This document shows, piece by piece, positions 2,771-45,693 of a stretch of 45,693 bases of DNA; positions within the stretch are counted from its first letter, which is position 1, and each line of letters begins with the position of its first letter. Source of the DNA: Chiloscyllium plagiosum (lineage: Eukaryota); NCBI RefSeq assembly GCF_004010195.1, contig NC_057751.1:11296955-11342647 (forward strand). The letters run 5' to 3'. A program made the position numbers and the translations under genes. The notes below the pieces were generated by a model. The model ran no database searches and had not been told where the DNA came from. It saw nothing but the letters and a program-made list of their open reading frames with translations.

Positions 2771-3139
2771 TCGGTGAAACTTTAGGCAAACTCTTCTGCT
2801 GCTGGAGCTGGAGAACTTGAAGGTGGAATGCTATTTGATGAAGTAGGGTGATGTTGCACCCACACCATTCACCGACTGCCAAAACCCTTCAACCCCAGCT
2901 CATCACCTCAGGGGTCAGGGCAGGCGGTGGGAAGGTAGCTGCTCCCTCAGTGCCCGGATCAGGAGCTGGACATCAGGACCTTACCTGCCCCCATCCTCAC
3001 AAATCCCAACCGAAGAACAACACCCAGTACCCCACCCATCCTGCACAGTGCCTGCCCCTNCCCCCCCCCCACCGTGAGATTTGGGAGTCCGGACTCAATC
3101 TTCCTGCAGCAACTACAGTCTTCTTTTTACACCTGAAAT

Positions 3140-9180: not shown

Positions 9181-12100
9181 GACAGTATCCCAAATACACA
9201 CATTCCATAGCAAAGGCAGTATCCCAGATACACACAAACTCCATAGCAAAGGCAGTATCGCACATATACACACACTCCATAGCAAAGGCAGTATCCCAGA
9301 TACACACACTCCGTAACAAAGGCAGTATCCCATATACACACACTCCAGAGCAAAGGCAATATCCCACATGCACACACTCCTAAACAAAGGCAGTATACCA
9401 TATACACACACTCCGTAGCAAAGGCAGTATCCCAGATACACACACTCCATAGCAAAGGCAGTATCCCATATACACACACTCCGTAACAAAGGCAGTATCC
9501 ATCCCATATACACACACTCCGTAACAAAGGCAGTATCCCAGATACACACACTCCATAACAAAGGCAATATCCCACATGCACACACTCCTAAACAAAGGCA
9601 GTATACCATATACACACACTCCGTAGCAAAGGCAGTATCCCATATACACACACTCCGTAACAAAGTCAGTAACCAAGATACACACACTCCGTAGCAAAGG
9701 CAGTATCCCATATACACACACTCCATAGCAAAGGCAGTATCCAAGATAACACACTCCGTAGCAAAGGCAGTATCCCATATACACACACTCCATAACAAAG
9801 GCAATATCCCACATGCACACACTCCTAAACAAAGGCAGTATACCATATACACACACTCCGTAGCAAAGGCAGTATCCCATATACACACACTCCATAACAA
9901 AGTCAGTATCCAAGATACACACACTCCGTAGCAAAGGCAGTATCCCATATACACACACTCCAAAACAAAGGCAGTATCCCACATACACACACACTCCATA
10001 GCAAAGTCAGGATCCAACATACACACATTCCATAACAAAGGCAGTATCCCAGATACATACACTCCATAGCAAAGGCAATATCCTATATACACACTCTATA
10101 TCAAAGGCAGTATCCCATATACACACACTCCGTAACAAAGTCAGTATCCAATATACACACAGTGCATAGCAAAGGCAGGATCGCACAGACAGACACTCCA
10201 TAGCAAAGGCAGTAACTAAGATACACACACTCCATATCAATTGCAGTATCCCATATACACACACTCCATAACAAAAGCAGTATCCCATATACACACTCTA
10301 TATCAAAGGCAGTGTCCCATATACACACACTCCAAAACAAAGACAGTATCCCACATACACACACACTCCATAGCAAAGGCAGTATCCCATAAACACACAC
10401 TCCATAACAAAGACAGTATCCCACATACACACACACTCCATAACAAAGGCAGTATCCCAGATACATACACTCCATATTTGCAGTATCCCATATACACACA
10501 CTCCATAACAAAAGCAGTATCCCATATACACACTCTATATCAAAGGCAGTGTCCCATATACACACACTCCAAAACAAAGGCAGTATCCCACATACACACA
10601 CACTCCATAGCAAAGTCAGGATCCAACATACACACATTCCATAACAAAGGCAGTATCCCAGATACATACACTCCATAGCAAAGGCAATATCCTATATACA
10701 CACTCTATATCAAAGGCAGTATCCCATATACACACACTCCTTGGCAAAGGCAGTATCGCAGATACACCCACTCCATAATTAATGCAGTATCCCATATACA
10801 CACATCCTCAATAGCAAAGGGAGTATCCCATATACACACACTCCATAGCAAAGGCAATTTCGCAGATACACACACTCCATAACTAAGGCAGTATCCCACA
10901 TACACACATACTCTATAGCAAAGGCAGTATCCTATACACACACACTCCTTATCAAAGGCACACTCCATAGCAAAGTCAGTATTGCTGATACACACACTCC
11001 ATAACTAAGGCAGTACCCCACATACACACATACTCTATAGCAAAGGCAGTATCCTATACACTCACACTCCTTATCAAAGGCAGTATCTCATATACACACA
11101 TATCATATTGAAGACAGTATCCCAGATACACACATTCCACAGCAAAGGCAGTATCCCATATACACACACTCCACAGCAAAGGCAGTATCCCATATACACA
11201 TACTCCATAGCAAAGGCAGTATCCCAGATACACACACTCCATAACAAAGGCAGTATCCCATATACACACACTCCATAACAAAGGCAGTATCCCATATACA
11301 CATACACCATAGCAAAGGCAGTATCCTCGATACACGCATTCGATAACAAATGCAGTATCCCATTTACATGCACACTCCATAGCAAAGGCAGTATCCCATA
11401 TACACACACAACATATCAAAGACAGATCCCAGATACACACACTCCATAGCAAAGGCAGTGTCCTATATACACTCTCTATGTCAAAGGCAGTATCGCAGAT
11501 ACACACACTCCATAACAAAGGCAGTATCACACATATACACACACTCCATAGCAAAGGCAGTGTCCTATATACACACTCGGTATCAAAGGCAGTATCCCAT
11601 CTACACATATTCCATATCGAAGGCAGTATCCCAGATACACACACTCCATAACAAAGGCAGTATCCCATATACACATACTCCATAGCAAAGGCAGTATCCA
11701 GATACACACACTCCACAGCAAAGGCAGTATCCCAGATACACACACACTATAACAAAGGCAGTTCCAAGATACACACACTCCATAACAAAGGCAGTATCCC
11801 ATGTATATACACGATAGCAAAGGCAGTATCCCATATACACATACTCCATAGCAAAGGCAGTATCCCAGATACACGCAATGATAACAAAGGCAGTATCCCA
11901 TATACACACACTCCATAGCAAAGGCCGTTTCCAAGATATACACACTCCATAGCAAAGGCAGTATCCCATATACATGCATTCGATAACAAATGCAGTATCC
12001 CAGATACATGCACACACCACAGCAAAAGCAGTATCCCATATACACATACTCCAGAACAAAGGCAGTATCCCACATACACACACACTCCATAGCAAAGGCA

Positions 12101-15100
12101 GTGTCCGATATACACACTCTCCATAACAAAGGCAGTATCCCACATACACACACACTCCTTAGCAAAGGCAGTATCCCAGATACACACACTCCACAGTAAA
12201 GGCAGTGTCCTATATACACACACTCCATAACAAAGGCAGTGTCCTATATACATACTCTATGTCAAAGGCAGTATCCCATATACACACACTCCATAGCAAA
12301 GGCAGTATCCCATATACACACACTCCAGAACAAAGGCAGTTTCCCACATACACACACACTCCATAGCAAAGGCAGTGTCCTATATACACACTCTATGTCA
12401 AAGGCAGTATCCCACAAACACACACACTCCTTAGCAAAGGCAGTATCCCAGATACACACACTCCATAGCAAAGGCAGTGTCCTATATACACACTCTATGT
12501 CAAAGGCAGTATCCCATATACACACACTCCATAACAAAGGCAGTATCACACATATACACACACTCCATAGCAAAGGCAGTCTCCAAGATATACACACTCC
12601 ATAGCAAAGGCAGTATCCCAGATACACACACACCATAACAAAGGCAGTCTCCCATATACACACTCTATAGCAACGGCAGTATCCCAGATACACACACACA
12701 CACCAGAGCAAGGCAGTATCACATAAACACACTCCATAGTAAAGGCAGTGTCCCATATACACACACTCCATAGCACAGGCAGTATCCCATATACACACTC
12801 TATATCAAAGGCAGTATCCCGTATACACACACTCCATAGCAAAGGCATTATCCCACATACACACACTGCACAGCAAAGGCGGTGTCCCATATACACACAC
12901 TCCATAGCAAAGGCAGTATCCCATATACAGACACTCCATATCAAAGTAGGTATCCCATATACACACACTCTGTAGCAACGGCAGTATCCCAGATACACAC
13001 ACTCCATAGTAAAGGCAGTATCCCAGATTCACACACTCTATATCAAAGGCAGTATCCAATATACACACACTCCAAAGCAAAGGCAGTATTGCATATACAC
13101 ACACTCCATAACAAAGGCAGAATCCCATATACACACACTCCAATGCAAAGGCAGTATCCAAGATATGCAGACTCCATAACAAAGGCAGTATCACATATAC
13201 ACACACTCCATAGCAATGGCAGTATCCAAGATACACACACTCCATAGCAAAGGCAGTATCCCATAAATACACTCCATAGCAAAGGCAGTGTCCCATATAC
13301 ACACTCCATATCAAAGTAGGTATCCCATATACACACACTCCGTAGCAAAAGCAGTATCCCATATACACACACTGCATAGAAAAGGCAGTATCCCATATAC
13401 ACACAACCCATAGCAAAGACAGTATCCTAGATACACACACTCCATAGCAAAAGCAGTGTCCTATATACACATTCTATATCAAAGGCAGTATCCCATATAC
13501 ACACGCTCCAAAGCAAAGGCAGTATTGCAGATACACACACTCCATAAGAAAGGCAGTATCCCATATACACACAGTCCATAGCAAAGATGGTATCCCAGAT
13601 ACACAAACTCCATAGCAAGGCAGTATCCCATGGACACACACTCCATAGCAAAGGCAACATCCCATATACACGCCCGATATCAAAGGCAGTATCCAATATA
13701 CACACACTCCATAGCAAAGGCAGTATCCCAAATACACACACTCCATAGCAAAGGCAGTATCCCACATACACACACGCCATAGCAAAGGCAGTATCCCATA
13801 TACACACACTCCATAACAAAGGCAGTATCCCACATACACACACTCCATAGCAAAGGCAGTATCACACATACACACACTGCATAGAAAAGGCAGTATCCCA
13901 TATACACACACCCCATATCAAAGTAGGTATCCCATATTCACACACTCCGTAGCAAAAGCAGTATCCCATATACACACTCTATATCAAAGGCAGTATCCCA
14001 CATACACACACTCCATAACAAAGGCAGTATCCCACATACACACACACTCCATAGCAAAGGCAGTATCCTATATACACACTCTATATCAAAGGCAGTATCC
14101 CATTTACACATATTCCATAGCAAATTCAGTATCCCATATACACACTCTATATCAAAGGCAGTATCCCATATACACACTCTATATCAAAGACTGTATCCCA
14201 TATACACACACTCTATATCAAAGGCAGTATCCCATATACACACCAAAGCAAAGGCAGTATCGCAGATACACATACTCCATAACAAAGGCAGTATCCCATA
14301 TACACGCTATCGATAACAAAGGCAGTATCCAATATACACACACTCCATAGCAAAGGCAGTATCCAAGATATACAGACTCCATAGCAAAGGCATATCCCAC
14401 ATACACACACTCCATAGCAACGGCAGTTTCCAAGATACACACACTCCATAACAAAGTAGGTATTCCCTATACACACACTCCATAGCAAAGGTAGTATCCC
14501 ATGTACACACACTCCATTAGCAAAGGCAGAGTCCCATATACACACACTCCATAGGAAAAGCAGTGTCCCATATACACACTCTATATCAAAGGCAGTATCC
14601 CATATACACATACTCCAAAGCAAAGGCAGTATCCCATATACACACACTCCATAGCAAAGGCAGTATCCAAGATATACAGACTCCATAGCAAAGGCATATC
14701 CCACATACACACACTCCATAGCAACGGCAGTTTCCAAGATACACACACTCCATAACAAAGTAGGTATTCCCTATACACACACTCCATAGCAAAGGTAGTA
14801 TCCCATATACACACTCTATATCAAAGGCAGTATCCCATATACACATACTCCAAAGCAAAGGCAGTATCCCATATACACACACTCCATAGTAAAGGCAGTA
14901 TCCCAGATACACACACTCCATAGCAAAGGCAGTATCCCAGATACACGCACACTCCATAGCAAAGCCAGTATCCCGTATATGCACTCTATATCAATGGCAG
15001 TGTCCCATATACACACACTCCATAACAAAGGTAGTATCCCATATACACATACTCCATAGCAAAGGCAGTATCCCAAATACACACATTCCATAGCACTCTA

Positions 15101-17080
15101 TATCAATGGCAGTATCCCATATGCACACATTCCATAGCAATGGCAGTATCCCATGTGCACACACTCCATAGTAAAGGCATATCCCACATACACACTCTCC
15201 ATAGCAAAGGCAGTATCAAAGGTACACGTACTCCATAACAAAGTAGGTATTCCATATATACACACTCCATAGCAAAAGCAGTATCCCATATACACACACT
15301 CCATATCAAAGGTAGTATCCCATATACAAACACTCCATAGCAAAGGCAGTATCCCATGTGCACACACTCCATAACAAAGGCATATCCCACATACACAGAC
15401 ACTCCATAGCAAAAGCAGTATCCCATATACTCAAATTCCATAAGGCAGTATCCCATATACAAACACTCCATATCAAAGGCAGTATCCCATATACAAACAC
15501 TCCATATCAAAGGCAGTATCCCATGTGCACACACTCCATAACAAAGCCAGTATCCAAGATACGCACTCTATATCAAAGGCAGTATCCCACATACACACAT
15601 TCCATAGCAAAGGCAGTATCCCAGATACACATACTCCATATCAAAGGCAGTATTCCACGTGCACACACTCCATAGCAAAGGCAGTATCCCAGATACACAC
15701 ATACTCCATATCAAAGGCTGTATCCCATATACACACACTCCATAACAAAGCCAGTATCCAAGATACGCACTCTATATCAAAGGCAATATCCCATATACAC
15801 ACATTCCATAGCAAAGGCACTATCCAAGATACACATACTCCATAGCAAAGGCAGTATCCCACATGCTCATACTCCATAGAAAAGGCAGTATCCCAAATAC
15901 ACACACTCCCTAGCAAAGGCAGTAACCCAGATACATATACTCCATAACAAAGGTAGTATCCCATATACACATACTCCATAGCAAAGGCAGTATCCCAGAT
16001 ACACACACTCCATAGCAAAGGCAATATCCCATATACACACACTCCATAACAAAGGTAGTGTCCCAGATACACACACTCCATAGCAAAGACAGTATCCCAT
16101 AAACAACACTCCATAGCAAGGCAGTATCCCATATACACACACTCCATAGCAAAGGCAATATCCCATATACACACACTCCATAACAAAGGTAGTGTCCCAG
16201 ATACACACACTCCATAGCAAAGACAGTATCCCATAAACAACACTCCATAGCAAGGCAGTATCCCATATACACACACTCCATAGCAAAGGCAGTATCCCAA
16301 ATACACACATTCCATAGCACTCTATATCAATGGCAGTATCCCATATGCACACATTCCATAGCAATGGCAGTATCCCAGATACACACACTCCATAGTAAAG
16401 GCATATCCCACATACACACCCTCCATAGCAAAGGCAGTATCAAAGATACACGTACTCCATAACAAAGTAGGTATTCCATAAACACACACTCCATAGCAAA
16501 AGCAGTATCCCATATACACACACTCCATGGCAAAGGCAGTATCCCATATGCACACACACCCCATAACAAAGGCATATCCCACATACACAGACACTCCATA
16601 GCAAAAGCAGTATCCCATATACTCACATTCCATAGCAAAGGCAGTATCCCATATACACACTCCATATCAAAGTAGGTATTCCATATACACACACTCCACA
16701 GCAAAGCAGTATCCCATATACACACACTCCATAACAAAGGCATATCCCACATACACAGACACTCCATAGCAAAGGCTGTATTCAAGATACACACACTCAA
16801 TAGCAAAGGCAATATCCCAGATATACACACTCCATAGCAAAGGCTGTATCCCATATCCACACACTCCATAACAAAGGTAGTATCCCAGATACACAAACTC
16901 CATAACAAAGGCAGTATCCCATATACACACATTCCATAAGAAAGGTAGTGTCCCAGATACACACACTCCTTTGCAAAGCCAGTATCCCATATCCACACAC
17001 TCCATAACAAAGGTAGTATCCCAGATACACACACTCCTTAGCAAAGGCAGTATCCCATATACACACACTCCACAGCAAAA
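9181..17080. repeat. Satellite array, 34-bp consensus GGCAGTATCCCATATACACACACTCCATAGCAAA, roughly 230 diverged units
   Basis: Period read directly (GGCAGTATCC at 9287 and 9321). Unit length varies, mostly 32/34/36 bp, through CA copy number. Confidence 0.98.
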
Positions 17081-24460: not shown

Positions 24461-24610
24461 AGCAAAAACAGAGAGTGCTGGAGAAACTCAGCAGGTCTGG
24501 CAGCATCTGTGGGAGAGAGAAAAGCAAATTTAACACTTCAACTCCAGTGAGTCCAGGCCTTCTGAGTTTCTCCAGCAATCTCTATTATAGTTTCAGATTT
24601 CCAGTCCTGT
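24461..24610. mobile_element. Penelope-like terminal fragment, inverted arrangement
   Basis: TGCTGGAGAAACTCAG (24477) and CTGAGTTTCTCCAGCA (24562) are reverse complements. Confidence 0.6.
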
Positions 24611-24673
24611 ATTTTAGTTTTTTGTTCTGTGGTGAAGTCTTGGAGTCGCGACTAACTAACATGAGGTGGTACA

Positions 24674-25158
24674 TGGAATAACTCCATACAAGCTGGTGCC
24701 CCATCACCAAGTCACCCTTCATCTCCACAGGTGGAAAGCCCTTGGAACTGCTCCTGCTTGTTCAGAGTGAACTAGAACACTCTTGTTTTTTTTTTCTTTT
24801 TTTTTTGTAGAAACCTCGACTCTGATCCAGTTCCCTCAGAGTCAGCTCTCTGAGTGAACAGAACCTCTGACACTCGGGTTTTTTTTTAAAACCCCCACAC
24901 GACCGCCTAACTGCGGTAGTGCTTATTTTTTCCCCAGCACCCATGTTGTTGTGTGCGTGCAGGTGTGAGACACAGTGAAAGACACAACGTGCACGAATCT
25001 TTCTTCAAATTTCCACCACCAGGAAGAAAGGAAACACCCAAGTGGCCAGTAACACTCTTGTTTCTATCTGTCAGCCAGGGCTCCCTGACTGGGTGAAACA
25101 AATAGTTCTGATCAGGGAACTCAGATTCCATACCATCCACCTGGCTGACCCATTTCCA
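24674..25158 (-). mobile_element. Solo-LTR-like element (TG...CA) hosting a Tx1 insertion
   Basis: The reverse complement GAATCTGAGTTCCCTGAT...CAGGGAGCCCTGGCTGACAGATAGAAAC...GGGTGACTTGGTGA...GGAGTTATTCCA aligns with 33917-34004 plus 35484-35927. Confidence 0.7.
24789..25050 (-). mobile_element. 5'-truncated Tx1-clade retrotransposon 3' UTR, transduced LTR segment and poly(A)
   Basis: 24888-25050 matches the 3' UTR at 34204-34365. Perfect 13-bp TSD AACACTCTTGTTT at 24776-24788 and 25051-25063. Two poly(T) tracts on the plus strand. Confidence 0.85.
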
Positions 25159-26214
25159 ATCATTTCAGTAGAATTTCAGAAATGGTCTTTCAGCAATGGA
25201 TCAAAAAGACAAGTGATTGGTACATCTCTGAATCCCATACATTGCAGTATTTAGTCTTGACATGGAAAAAGCCAGTGTTATTTAGAAGCCCAAAGCTGAA
25301 CGCAGATCATAACCTTCTTCATCTTTGAGCCCAAATGCCTCAATGTGAGCAGAAAAATCACACAATTAAAGACGGGCCACTCAGCCGCTCCTTCTTATTC
25401 CTGTCAAGAGAAGAGCCCTGAACTCGTCATTCTTTCCTGTCAGCTCAAAGCCCTCGGTTGGAGTTGGACAATGATAAAAGAGGCTGCCCCTAGAAAACCA
25501 ACAGGAATGGGGTCCCTCTTGGTGAATGAGCAGCTGCAACGCTATTTGAGGCATGCAGTTTGTTTGTGACTCAGTCACGCTGAGGCCAGCCTGACAAAAT
25601 GCAGCAAAAACTCAACAGAAAAGCAGTCTCAAAGATGCGGCCTTAGAAAGATTATAAACTTTTTTTCATAACCAGTGCTATTTTTGGAGTAGTGCACAAC
25701 TTCAGGGAACTGCACATATTGATCCACAAAGTATCAGAGAATTTAGACACTATTTATTATGTCAATAGTTTGAACTCTTGCCTGTTCGTTGATCTTGTGC
25801 CTGCATTTTAATCATCTGGCAATTAAACCCTTTTACAGAGAACACTCAATTTGCTCGTAAAGTGAACGCACATTCTCACGACTGCAGACTCAAGGCAGGA
25901 ATGATTAAAAACTGACTGCTTTCTTCACAGCATTTGAGCTAGAGCTTGGGTTGAAAATAGAGAATCTGTAAACCATACCCCAGTGTTTTATCCTGATTAT
26001 CTTGGGACCAAAGAATAAAGACATGGTTTACCCCTCGAGAAATGAGGTCTTCCCTCACAATGGTCATTACATTCGGGGAAACTCTCTGTCAGTAGAAATA
26101 ATCAACTTCCTTGGAATGAGTACACTGATTCTGTCACATGGGAATATTGCCCGCAGGTATTTCACTGTCAGTTGGTCTACCACAGTTATAACTGCTGTCT
26201 ATCAGGATTGTAAT

Positions 26215-27200
26215 AGAGTTACAACTAGTCTCTGCTGGTCTCGTCACAGAGCTACACTGGTCTCTGCTGGATAGTCACAGAGCTATAACTGGTCTCTTCT
26301 GGTATAGTGACAGAGCTACACTGTATCTGCTGGTATAGTCACAGAGCTCCAACTGGTCTCTGCTGGTATAGTGACGGAGCTGCAACTAGTCTCTGTTGGA
26401 TCATCACAGAGCTACAACTGGTCTCTGCTGAATAGTCACAGACCAAAACTGGTCTCTGCTGGATAGTCACAGAGATACAACTGGTCTCAGCTGGTATAGT
26501 GACAGAGCTACAATTGGCCTCTGCTGGTATAGCGACAGAGCTACCCTGGTCTCTGCTGATATAGTCACAGAACCCCAACTAGTCTCTGCTGGTATAGTCA
26601 CAGAACTCTCATAGTATCATCACAGAATTACAACTGGTCTCTGCTGGTATAGTCACAGAGCTACACTGGTCTCTGCTGGAATGTCACAGAACTACAACTG
26701 GTCTCTGCTGGAATGTCACAGAGCTACAGCTGGTCTCTGCTGGATAGTTACAGAGATACAACTGGTCTCAGCTAGTATAGTGACAGAGCTACAATTGGCC
26801 TCTGCTGGTATAGCGACAGAGCTACACTGGTGTCTGGTGATATAGTCACAGAACTCCAACTGGTCTCTGCTGGTATAGTCACAGAGCTACACTGGTCTCT
26901 GCTAGATAGTCACAGAGCTACACTGATCTCTGCTGGATAGTCATAGAGCTACACTGGTCTCTTGTGGTATAGTCACAGAACTCAAATTAGTCTCTCATAG
27001 TATCATCACAGCTACACTGGTCTTTGCTGGATAGTCACAGAGGTACAACTGGTCTCTGCTGGTATAGTCACAGAGCTACACTGGTCTCTGCTGGATAGCC
27101 GCAGAGCTACACTGGTCTCTGCTGGATAGTCAGAGATACAACTGGTCTCTGCTGGTATAGTGACAGAGATATAACTGTTGAATACTCATAGAACTACAAA
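26215..27200. repeat. Minisatellite, 31-33 bp unit CTAC(A)ACTGGTCTCTGCTGG(T)ATAGTCACAGAG, ~30 copies
   Basis: Directly visible tandem periodicity with degenerate edges. Confidence 0.97.
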
Positions 27201-29579: not shown

Positions 29580-29990
29580 AACGCTGTATCTCTTCCCTGT
29601 CAGGAATTTCAACGAGTGAAGGGAGAATCTCATGGAAACATACAAACTCATGAGATTGGACAGGCTAGATGTGCAAGGAATTTTCCTGATGTTGGGAAAG
29701 TCCAGAACTAGACAATCTAATAATAAGGGGTAAACCATTCAGAACTGAGATGAGGAAGAGTTCCTTCACTCAGAGAGCTGTGAACCTGTGGAATTGTCTC
29801 CCACAGAAAATTGTAGGGACTGGTTCGATAGAGATAGCCATGAGGGAGTCAGACATGGCCCTTGTGACTAAAGGGATCACGAGGGAGTGGCTGAAAATGA
29901 GAGTGGGATACTGAAACTACATGATCAGATTGAGAGGTGGAGTAGACTCAAAGGGCAGAATGGCCTTCCCCTGTCCTATTTTCTGTGCAT
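29580..29990 (+). mobile_element. CR1 3' end
   Basis: ACTGAGATGAGGAAGAGTTCCTTCACTCAGAGAGCTGTGAACCTGTGGAAT...GACTCAAAGGGCAGAATGGCCT; the reverse of 18420-18790. Confidence 0.8.
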
Positions 29991-33531: not shown

Positions 33532-33690
33532 TGAAATAACTGTGGAGAAGCTAGTATCCCATCAACAAGTCACCCTTTAGTTATGTGTGCACATTACCAA
33601 CGCTCTTACCGATCAGCTCCAAGCCAGTTCCTAGTATGGAGAGACTCTCTGAGTGACCTAGGTTAACAGATTCACCTGATCCTTGTTCCA
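33532..33690 (-). mobile_element. Degenerate, internally deleted copy of the solo-LTR-like family, without Tx1
   Basis: The reverse complement starts TGGAACAAGG and ends AAAGGGTGACTTGTTGATGGGATACTAGCTTC..GTTATTTCA. Confidence 0.55.
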
Positions 33691-34018
33691 ATCTCTGCAG
33701 AGAGTAAAATGAATGCACCTGCAGCAGAATTCCCAGGGGATCAGACCAGAAAGGCCTTGGGGGTGAGCATCACAGTGGGCATGGCCCTGTGTTTTGAAGT
33801 ATTTAAGATGGAGTCAGACCAGTCTGTCTCATGTGCTGGTTTTACTGGTTTAGCCTTCTGGAAGGGAACTAAAGAGGGTTCTGACGAGTCACAGTGGATG
33901 TGAAATGTATCACAATTGTAACAAGGTGGACCTTACAGAATCTGAGTTCCCTAATTGAGGCTGTTAATCTGGTCCAATCAGGGAGCCCTGGCTGACAGAT
34001 AAAATGGTAGGTGCGGGG

Positions 34019-34135
34019 GTGTCCTTGGAGAAGGAGCACGCGGTGTCGACCAACACCCTGGAGGTGTTCAGGGAGAGGTGGGGGCCGCGGGGAGTAGAGT
34101 GCATCATTTCTCCCTCCAACTCTATTTTGATTTAG
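34019..34135 (+). pseudogene. Tx1-like ORF2 C-terminal fragment
   Basis: VSLEKEHAVSTNTLEVFRERWGPRGVECIISPSNSILI* by manual translation; resembles the Tx1 ORF2 C-terminus (recalled). Confidence 0.7.
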
Positions 34136-35071
34136 TCCCTACCCTCCCCTTCACTGTTTTTGATCACACAACATTGCCCTTTGATGTGAAGGGCAGTGTT
34201 TGTCACTGGCCACCCGGGTGTTTTCCTATCTTCCTGGTGGTGGAAATTGAATAAAGATTCGTGGACCTTGTGTCTTTCACTGTGTCTCACACCTGTGCAC
34301 ACACACACCATGGGTGCTGGGGATAAAATAAGCACTACCGCACTTAGGTGGTAGTGTGGGGGTTAAATTTTAAAAAAAAAGAATAAAAAATAAATAAATA
34401 AATAAACAAACAGGAAATAAGCACTACCGCACTTAGGTGATAGTGTGGGGGTTAAAAGGAAAAAGAAGAGAAGAACAGGGGTGTTTGAATAAAGATTCGT
34501 GCACTTTGTGTTTTTCACTGTGTCTCACACCTGCACACACACACCATGGGTGCTGGGGATAAAATAAGCACTACCGCACTTAGGTGGTAGTGTGGGGGTT
34601 AAATTTTAAAAAAAAAGAATAAAAAATAAATAAATAAATAAACAAACAGGAAATAAGCACTACCGCACTTAGGTGATAGTGTGGGGGTTAAAAGGAAAAA
34701 GAAGAGAAGAACAGGGGTGTTTGAATAAAGATTCGTGCACTTTGTGTCTTTCACTGTGTCTCACACCTGCACACACACACCATGGGTGCTGGGGATAAAA
34801 TAAGCACTACCGCACTTAGGTGGTAGTGTGGGGGTTAAATAAAAAGAAAAAAAAAAATAAATAAATAAACAGAAGGTTCTTCCTGGTGGTGGAAATTGAA
34901 TAAAAGATTGGTGCACTTTGTGTCTTTCACTGTGTCTCACACCTGCACACACACACCATGGGTGCTGGGGAAAAAATAAGCACTACCGCACTTAGGTGGT
35001 AGTGTGGGGGTTAAAACAAAAAAAAATAAGAAAAAAAAAAGAAGAAGAAAAAAAAAAGAAGAAAACAAAGT

Positions 35072-35206
35072 GACTATGTTCGAGCCCGGGTGTCCTTGGA
35101 GAAGGAGCACGCGGTGTCGACCAACACCCTGGAGTTGTTCAGGGAGAGGTGGGGGCCACGGGGAGTGGAGTGCATCATTTCCTCCTCCAACTCTATTTTG
35201 ATTTAG
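35072..35206 (+). pseudogene. Tx1-like ORF2 C-terminal fragment
   Basis: DYVRARVSLEKEHAVSTNTLELFRERWGPRGVECIISSSNSILI*; the frame is conserved with the 34019 copy. Confidence 0.7.
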
Positions 35207-35570
35207 TCCCTACCCTCCCCTTCAGTGTTTTGATCACACAGCATTGCTCTTCGATGTGAAGGGCACTGCTTGTCACTGGCCACTCGGGTGTTTTCCTATC
35301 TTCCTGGTGGTGGAAATTGATATAAAGACTCGTAGATCTTGCGTCTTTCACTGTGTCTCACACCTGCACACACACAACATGGGAGCTGGGGAAAAAATAA
35401 GCACTACCGCAGTTAGGTAGTAGTGTGGGGGTAAAGAAAAAGAAGTAAAAAAAAGAAAAAACAGGGGTGTCTGAAAAAAAAGAACAGAGATGTCAGACTT
35501 CTTGTTCACTCTGAGAAAGCTGGCTCTGTGGGAGCTGGATCAGTTAATCCTTTTCCACGTGTAAATAAAA

Positions 35571-35873
35571 ATAAATCCCTCGAACTCAGCACCACCATAA
35601 ATCCATCGAATTCAGCACCGCCTTCCTAACCTGCAATCTTCTTCCTGACCTCTCCGCCCCCACCCCACTCCGGCCTATCACCCTCACCTTGACCTCCCTC
35701 CACCTATCGCAATTCCAGCACCCCTCCCCCAAGTCCCTCCTCCCTACCTTTTATCTTAGCCTGCTGGACACACTTTCCTCATTCCTGAAGAAGGGCTTAT
35801 GCCCGAAACGTCGATTCTCCTGCTCCTTGGATGCTGCCTGACCTGCTGCGCTTTTCCAGCAACACATTTTCAG
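35571..35873 (+). mobile_element. Penelope-like 3' fragment inserted in the LTR
   Basis: C-rich tract followed by CTGAAGAAGGGCTTATGCCCGAAACGTCG. Flanked by GTAAATAAA at 35561-35569 and 35875-35883 (9-bp TSD). Confidence 0.75.
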
Positions 35874-35944
35874 GGTAAATAAAGGGTAACCTGGTGACAC
35901 AGTACCAGCCTCTGTGGAGTTTTTAAACAACGTTAACCCCCATG

Positions 35945-39405: not shown

Positions 39406-40188
39406 ACCTGTGTGTTCATCCCGAAGTCCTGGTGAAGATTGGTTCTCAGTCACCACCTGAGAAATCTGCTTATTGTGTTCTCGCTGTGTTTTGGATCTTG
39501 CTGTGCTGGCTGGTGTATTCTCTCTGATTGCTTTCTTCCCACAATGCCTGAGGTACGAAGATGGCCGGCTGCTTGCAGCAGGAACTGGGAACATCCTGAG
39601 AGGAATGAGTTCCAAGGGACTAACGTTTGCCCGCTATACAGTCTGCATGCATTTGGCAGAGGATCACTCAGTGGGGCTTCACTGGGTGAACAGCTGAAAG
39701 AACTGAACAGGAAGAACTGTCAATGTCAGTCCTCATCAAACTGGAGCAGGCCTCTCCATCCCTGATAAGGAAGGGAGCTGGAAACTAACTGAATCCAGTC
39801 AGTCATGAATAATAACGGGGGGTCCTTAAAATGCTTTGTGAAAGAAAAACTGGAATTGGGATTCAACTTTACGATATTTCAACTCCTGCACAGAAACTGA
39901 CAAGTTGCCTCATTTATTCATGTCCCTACCTGACAATCCATATCCTTCTGGTCCTTTCTCCCTCATGTTCCTTTAGGTTCTTTGTATTTCTGTGAAATGC
40001 TAAAATCCTATTCTCCAATTTGTGATCACAAGTTCTACATTCTCAACACCATTTGAGTAAAGACACTTCCTCCTGAACTCCCCCAGTGGCTTTATTACTA
40101 ACCATCTCATGCTCCCAGTCCCTTCACGTGTCAATGACATCTCCATGATTATCCTGTCGACACCACCTCCCTGTAACAATGCAGTGAT

Positions 40189-40265
40189 TGGAGCAAGGTC
40201 CAGGTGGATCTCATTGAGTCCGACATTCCTTATTACGGCTGTTAACATGGGCCAATCAGGGAGTC
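40189..40265 (+). mobile_element. Old 5' fragment of the solo-LTR-like family, without Tx1
   Basis: TGGAGCAAGGTCCAGGTGGATCTC...GGCTGTTAACATGGGCCAATCAGGGAG aligns with 33917-33986. Confidence 0.55.
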
Positions 40266-40520
40266 TGTACTCAATAAGATCCACTCATCAGTCCACTCTT
40301 GTAGTCAATGATGAGAGTGAGGTGAGGGTTACTGAAGCCCTCCTTCTTTGCAATATTGGGAATTGAGGGTGGGGAGTGGAGCCTCACCCTTGTTTGTACA
40401 AACGTGGGCCAGCTCTGGTCACCCTCTCCGTTTTGGGTTCAAAGGTTCAGACACAAAACCTACTGATATTTAAGCATGGTACCAGTGGAATGTCAGAGGG
40501 ACTGTTTAGCTTGATATAAA

Positions 40521-45384: not shown

Positions 45385-45693
45385 CAATAGACAATAGACA
45401 ATAGACAATAGGTGCAGGAGTAGGTCATTCAGCCCTACGAGCCTGCACCGCCATTCAACTTGATCATGGCTAATCATTCCTAATCAGTATCCTGTTCCTG
45501 CCTTATCTCCATAACCCTTGATTCCACTATCTTTGAGAGCTCTATCCAACTCTTTATTAAATGAATCCAGAGACTGGGCCTCCACTGCCCTCTGGGGCAG
45601 AGCATTCCACACAGCCACCACTCACTGGGTGAAGAAGTTTCTCCTAATCTCTGTTCTAAATGGCCTAACCCCTATTTTTAAGCTGTGTCCTGG
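45385..45693 (-). mobile_element. Young CR1 3' end with a 7-bp tandem tail, running off the window
   Basis: (CAATAGA)x3.9 at 45385-45411, then GGTGCAGGAGTAGGTCATTCAGCCC and an intact 3' UTR. Confidence 0.9.

Follow-up and report, generated by a model that had tools for sequence, protein, structure and literature searches.

The insertion at 24776..25063 of the 45,693-nt window (i.e. the whole stretch of Chiloscyllium plagiosum DNA that was analysed) probably arose in one step, as a single insertion of a Tx1-like LINE whose RNA had been read through into the LTR surrounding its donor, i.e. a partnered 3' transduction. Read-through of the donor, the single event and the clade of the enzyme are steps that we infer from the sequence, and the names 'Tx1' for the carrier LINE and 'LTR' for the host repeat likely hold as labels. 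The event is a passive by-product.

Structure, read support and age of the insertion

Read on the minus strand, the locus starts in the left (5') arm of a solo-LTR-like host repeat (repeat A; 25064..25158), which has a decayed TATA box at its end, and passes into the 5' copy of a 13-bp target site duplication (TSD; 25051..25063) whose last four bases overlap LINE sequence. There follow 163 nt of the 3' UTR of a Tx1-like (L1-group) LINE, 5'-truncated and lacking coding sequence (24888..25050), a first A-tract of nine A's (24879..24887) that would be the tail of the donor element, and a 72-nt LTR-family piece that starts in the target register and is the putative 3' transduction (24807..24878). 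A second A-tail of the form A10-G-A7, to which three A's common to the 13-mer can be added (24789..24806), leads into the 3' copy of the TSD (24776..24788), which is identical to the 5' copy at 13/13 positions. The right (3') arm of repeat A closes the locus (24674..24775) and is decayed, finishes in CA and is ~20 nt shorter than the family in the homologous segment. An element 3' end, an internal A-tract, extra sequence and a second poly(A), with a single TSD around all of them, are present at this locus, and the anatomy described in the earlier note (i.e. a 13-bp TSD, A9, a 72-nt LTR piece and a second poly(A)) was borne out by this reading. A search of the window found the 13-mer only twice, both times at the ends of the insertion. 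Its first three A's are indistinguishable from the second tail, and LINE family sequence at the truncation point coincides with its last four bases (3/4 alike), indicating that the duplication measures 10-13 bp and that there was microhomology at the 5' junction.

Read support was examined with four of 24 sequencing runs listed, aligned to 24590-25490 at 85% likeness, comprising DNA-like runs of organisms A (C. plagiosum), B and C (two relatives) and one RNA run; letter differences between runs and window were taken from 40 of 135 rows listed. Contigs bridging the right flank, the 13-mer, the second tail and ≥35 nt of the piece were obtained in all three DNA runs, one per organism and each at single-copy depth. 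The bridging contig of organism A covers 24693-24863 with one other letter, and those of organisms B and C cover 24590-24841 with 7 and 17 other letters, respectively. The presence of the piece/tail/flank junction in contigs of three species indicates that the insertion is real and old. Two long flank contigs differed from the window at 19/676 places (organism B) and 34/686 places (organism C), indicating that the insertion predates a split of about 5%; it is older than the divergence of the three species. The right junction is present in organisms B and C, and no precise empty orthologous site was observed among the 15 joints listed of 366. None of the 24 pieces listed of 32,064 bridged either the 5' junction or the A9 junction, both of which thus rest on the assembly. 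An assembly error could be argued from the lack, among the contigs listed, of one that spans the whole insertion; the recovery of the right junction from three organisms speaks against such an error.

The two host arms join into a repeat of ~200 nt, of which at least four decayed copies (A, B, C and D) are present in the window. The left arm of A matches that of LTR B with 66 of 93 aligned bases alike (nhmmer, E 1.6e-10). Alignment of DNA reads placed the limits of the repeat close to these arms, with paralog depth down to the single-copy level beyond ~25178 and family contigs breaking off at about 24677, beyond which their flanks are unlike (loose ends, agreement 0.41-0.42). Copy B begins with TGTAAC, copies A and C finish in CA, the family shows TATAAA and sharp ends in reads, and AATAAA is present in B; taken together, these features fit a solo LTR. 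Short TSDs of 4-6 bp around the LTR were alike at 3/4 positions for B, and none was clear for A. Copies C (~33532-33690, minus strand) and D (~40172-40266, plus strand) are members of the LTR family that lack the LINE and are too decayed or cut for their target site to be judged. Two further candidate copies (29760-29793 and 45605-45657) were rejected as part of another repeat. Other repeats of the window include a 215-bp unit in two copies, 98% alike, at its edge (1-432; one N occurs at 3060), a 7.9-kb minisatellite with ~233 copies of a 34-bp unit and strong GC and AT skew (9183-17079), whose long stop-free frames are probably not genes, and a second minisatellite with ~30 copies of a 32-bp unit (26215-27177).

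Origin of the 72-nt piece and probable read-through of a donor

The 72-nt piece differs clearly from the adjacent host LTR and is nearer to the LTR at ~35484-35560, as the earlier note had proposed. Local alignment to LTR B (35481-35558) gave a score of 59, which was reached by none of 2000 shuffles, as compared to a score of 25 for the adjacent host copy, reached by 2/2000 shuffles. Aligned end to end, the piece shows 55 matches, 20 mismatches and 3 gap columns with LTR B and 35, 21 and 29, respectively, with the host right arm. This homology to the host arm is what a local tandem duplication, the alternative that the earlier note had itself named, would produce. The piece, however, mismatches the host arm at 21 of 56 aligned columns and keeps ~20 nt that are absent from it (75 vs 56 nt, counted from the A's up to where the piece stops), and in run X5 the summed paralog depth was 10,599-108,456 on the piece as compared to 13.9 across the host segment homologous to it (24745-24806).

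Rare bases point the same way. In the three DNA runs, the left 13-mer is unlike 93% of family contig depth at 25058 and unlike 99% at 25051, where LINE and LTR paralogs are counted together. The right 13-mer shares these two rare bases, indicating that both outer copies arose by duplication of the decayed site of the host itself; at the two matching positions of the piece, the family base is present. Two bases private to the piece (24876 and 24877) are unlike 93% and 96% of X5 depth. Because the piece lacks the host-private bases and has the family bases, it originated in another, less decayed LTR. The ~20 extra nt and the restriction of the host-private bases to the 13-mers also led to rejection of a local duplication, which, taken with the assembly error considered above, is highly improbable.

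The piece begins at the point where, in uninterrupted family copies, TATAAA is followed by the rest of the LTR (joints 24869-24875 to 25052-25066; loose end 24875), and the register of its start resembles a natural LINE-tail/LTR junction. Its end lies 4 nt short of where the family has AATAAA. Neither AATAAA nor any of its listed variants (12 hexamers) was found in the 100 nt that precede the second tail, the nearest similar motif being AATAAG at 115 nt, and no poly(A) signal lies 10-30 nt ahead of the new end.

One event of target-primed reverse transcription with 3' transduction is the most economical explanation, since the piece is non-local and stands in target register behind an A-tail. 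A donor LINE would have resided at the TATA-box site of another LTR copy and been transcribed past its own A-tail for 72 further bases, after which a new tail was added. The element's protein would then have nicked the corresponding site of the old, decayed LTR present here, and reverse transcription primed at this target would have copied the tail, the LTR piece, the old tail and 163 nt of the 3' UTR. Copying presumably halted at the short microhomology with the target, and repair would have yielded the 13-bp duplication. The proposal that a donor in another LTR copy had been read through is supported as the most economical reading, with a non-local piece in the target register; no donor locus was recognised among the 24 pieces listed of 32,064. 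Junctions between a LINE tail and the LTR do exist elsewhere, in locus B and in contig record 19 of run X5, which satisfies a 31-letter rule with 36 nt of LTR and 52 nt of LINE and has 11 other letters in 98. A similar contig, record 20, reaches only 24 nt into the LTR.

Transcripts were sought in RNA run X21, of which ~2% was read and from which 10 joints and 24 loose ends at repeats were dropped. No read-through joint was observed among those listed. LINE-sense reads with poly(T) starts were found at the LINE's own tail, and a poly(T) loose end fell at 24879 (agreement 0.54). Only 3 of 1573 aligned reads were 99% alike and there were no strong start or end sites.

Repeated insertion at one LTR site

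A second LTR copy in the window, locus B (33917..35927, plus strand), is interrupted at the matching position by an array of tandem copies of this LINE. Both LTR A and LTR B are therefore split at one place, so that both of the two LINE loci of the window are at this site. The array (34005-~35482) holds seven LINE 3' ends with varied target-like spacers in between, and none of the seven carries the 72-nt piece. One 236-bp segment is a duplication at 96%; once it is set aside, five 3' ends are independent. At the distal end of the array a tail is followed by a 16-nt target-like piece, A7G and the target, an arrangement that may reflect either a very short 16-nt transduction or a nearly empty older insertion. 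LTR B further contains a 305-bp piece of another abundant repeat within its poly(A) signal (35561-35883), which has 9-bp direct repeats (35561-35569 and 35875-35883) and adjoins the end point of the 72-nt piece.

Reads provided further examples. In run X5, at least six further LINE 5' truncation points (24969, 24978, 24979, 24982, 24987 and 25001) were joined to the LTR left arm, as drawn from 3 of the 15 joints and 5 of the 12 insert rows listed, with two present in both tables. Both window loci and these truncation points indicate that the LINE family prefers one site in a multicopy target. The earlier note had deduced a third targeted insertion by indirect means; further insertions of the family at this site are now seen directly, in the at least six other truncation points and the one tail-LTR junction contig described above. 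Several 5' junctions (joints 24969-25001 to 25054-25070) had depths of 58-203 as compared to ~15 for single-copy sequence, suggesting that the filled LTRs themselves multiplied later. Summed depths, which are not copy numbers, suggest that the LINE is no less abundant than the LTR. One X5 joint (24870 to 25055) represents another LTR copy with a 32-nt A-rich filler at the target site and no LINE body.

Stacking of copies bears on histories in two steps, which are, taken together, an unlikely source of the insertion. In one of these, itself doubtful, an A-tailed fragment of LTR RNA would have been copied in trans and joined in register by homology, with the LINE arriving later at the regenerated left duplication, such that the start of the 'piece' would be a second, mutated duplication. 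The family does stack copies at this site with a target-like spacer between each (locus B), the distal end of locus B is explained just as well by an older insertion that is nearly empty, and sequential insertion that sandwiches the TSD is known for SINEU-3, as described in the accessible text of PMC4494074. This history nevertheless needs two changes in the middle copy and a third, at 25051, that by chance agrees with the right copy, while the outer copies are identical at 13/13 positions; the crude likelihood ratio against it, computed from the middle-copy changes alone, is only about 2 to 13. An LTR RNA is expected to end after its AATAAA and not before it, which also counts against this history.

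In the other two-step history, to which little probability is given, a later orphan transduction or an LTR-RNA fragment would have entered the LINE tail at a TTTT/AAAA junction and left a duplication of A's only. The 13-mers and the foreign piece are explained as well by this as by a single transduction, and a LINE end with A9 offers on the other strand 5'-TTTT/AA-3', i.e. the L1 consensus given in the part of PMC1950540 that was available. Two events are required instead of one, and a fragment of the same LTR family, at most 3 bases off the target register, must have landed in a tail that already lay within that family.

There is also a slight chance that the piece was copied at the DNA level, when a broken LINE tail was repaired with a filled LTR as template, whereby a tail and 72 nt of flank were copied and the ends rejoined at A-rich microhomology near AATAAA. 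Such copying is consistent with the end of the piece beside an A-rich poly(A) signal and with the 236-bp DNA-level duplication in locus B. An RNA intermediate is a better fit both to the second tail, a clean A-tract of 18-21 nt placed directly on the duplication, and to the 4 nt missing between the piece and AATAAA. Insertion into the tail and DNA-templated repair were ranked lower than a single transduction because they explain the letters at the cost of more coincidence. Integration of one read-through LINE RNA accordingly stays the preferred reading.

The carrier itself was identified from its relatives. The only other match to the LINE 3' UTR in the window is at 34201-35441, in locus B, where two long copies gave 143 matches with 12 mismatches and 141 with 13, respectively. 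In these long copies the UTR is preceded by the end of an open frame of ~44 codons (the ORF2 C-terminus). Neither of two window peptides matched Pfam. Three relatives of the ORF2 C-terminal peptide were found among 1.84 billion proteins, and the peptide is 63% identical to the end of one protein (P0005), whose zf-RVT match of 26 bits is below the cut-off of 27.5 and whose neighbours in the Atlas are chordate zf-RVT clusters. No long relatives of P0005 were present among 8000 candidates, which yielded no named full-length ORF2, and the LINE 3'-end motif had no matches in metagenome_contigs or viral_contigs. As far as its sequence goes, the ORF2 end of the window fits the L1 group; we tentatively call the carrier Tx1-like from a C-terminal motif, the window holding only ~44 ORF2 codons.

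Putative carried target sequence and known systems

The earlier note had concluded that the element delivers new target sites. This claim is not supported by the present copy: only the downstream half-site was carried, it stands behind a poly(A) and has two changed bases at its start, the piece landed in an LTR that already held the site, and no later insertion has occurred in the piece. The TATA-side half of the site was left behind, the carried half being the tail side of the nick. As reported in the available text of PMC1919474, the Tx1L endonuclease recognises some 10 bp about its nick; nicking was weaker at a hybrid site that had a T-tract on one side (PMC1950540, likewise in its available text). 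Given this ~10-bp recognition and weaker nicking of T-tract hybrids, which belong to another element, a half site behind a poly(A) is probably a poor target. Ordinary insertions rebuild the full site on their 5' side through the duplication, so that arrays like locus B are explained without carried targets. We see only a small chance that read-through is routine, with copies spreading the LTR half and with the tail plus piece serving as a fresh landing site or as the fixed 3' end of a subfamily; if true, this would be a retroelement that spreads its own target. The locus would gain larger importance only if carried pieces proved to be reused as landing sites.

The closest parallel is partnered 3' transduction by human L1, with which the locus shares a LINE 3' end, an internal A-tract, a short source flank, a second poly(A) and one TSD. 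In the accessible part of one data set on human L1 (PMC13009371), 248/349 transductions were <100 bp and these were often flanked by poly(A) at either end; a poly(A) signal was near 79% of transduction ends, and for 21% no signal scored in the usual interval. The present piece is similarly <100 bp, and some L1 ends likewise lack a strong poly(A) signal. Unlike in the human cases of that text, the carrier here is a fish LINE that prefers one site, its transduced flank is homologous to the sequence in which it landed, and the event is germline and old.

Site preference has its own precedents. Tx1-clade LINEs or tandem copies that sandwich the TSD are represented among crocodilians by Tx1-8_Crp, Tx1-4_AMi, Tx1-Mar and SINEU-3 (PMC4494074), and Xenopus Tx1L targets Tx1D (PMC1950540). 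So far as the available texts describe them, these elements resemble the present LINE in using one preferred site in another transposon, with two families in LTR retrotransposons, in tandem copies that sandwich the TSD and in independent 5'-truncated copies at the site. In contrast to the 72-nt piece reported here, PMC4494074 uses 'transduction' once, for 5' extensions, and the parts of it that were consulted describe no 3' transduction of target sequence. The accessible text of the Utopia paper (PMC4640811) mentions neither transduction nor read-through. Among the entries listed by searches of openly accessible papers, no description was found of a Tx1-type element that transduced its own target on the 3' side, and junction figures in the supplements of PMC4494074 may hold cases. 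Both L1 3' transduction and Tx1 targeting of LTR elements are already known, and the present locus is an expected product of the two.

This locus extends short 3' transduction, of which human L1 is the best-known case, to a cartilaginous fish and a LINE that prefers one site. As the carried flank belongs to the target family itself, it also provides an example of how such a transduction looks and of the risk of misreading it as a local duplication. Carried pieces are source tags, and could be used to trace which filled LTRs were active. A final comparison is with an actinopterygian lineage of R2, in which 28S rRNA-derived sequence is present in the 3' UTR (PMC5035012, in the text available). 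Both are site-specific LINEs with target-derived sequence at the 3' end; the R2 sequence is fixed in several families, belongs to elements with another type of endonuclease and has a proposed role in target pairing, whereas one dead copy is present here. A piece such as the 72-nt one could plausibly be the beginning of a target-derived 3' end of the kind present in some fish R2 families.
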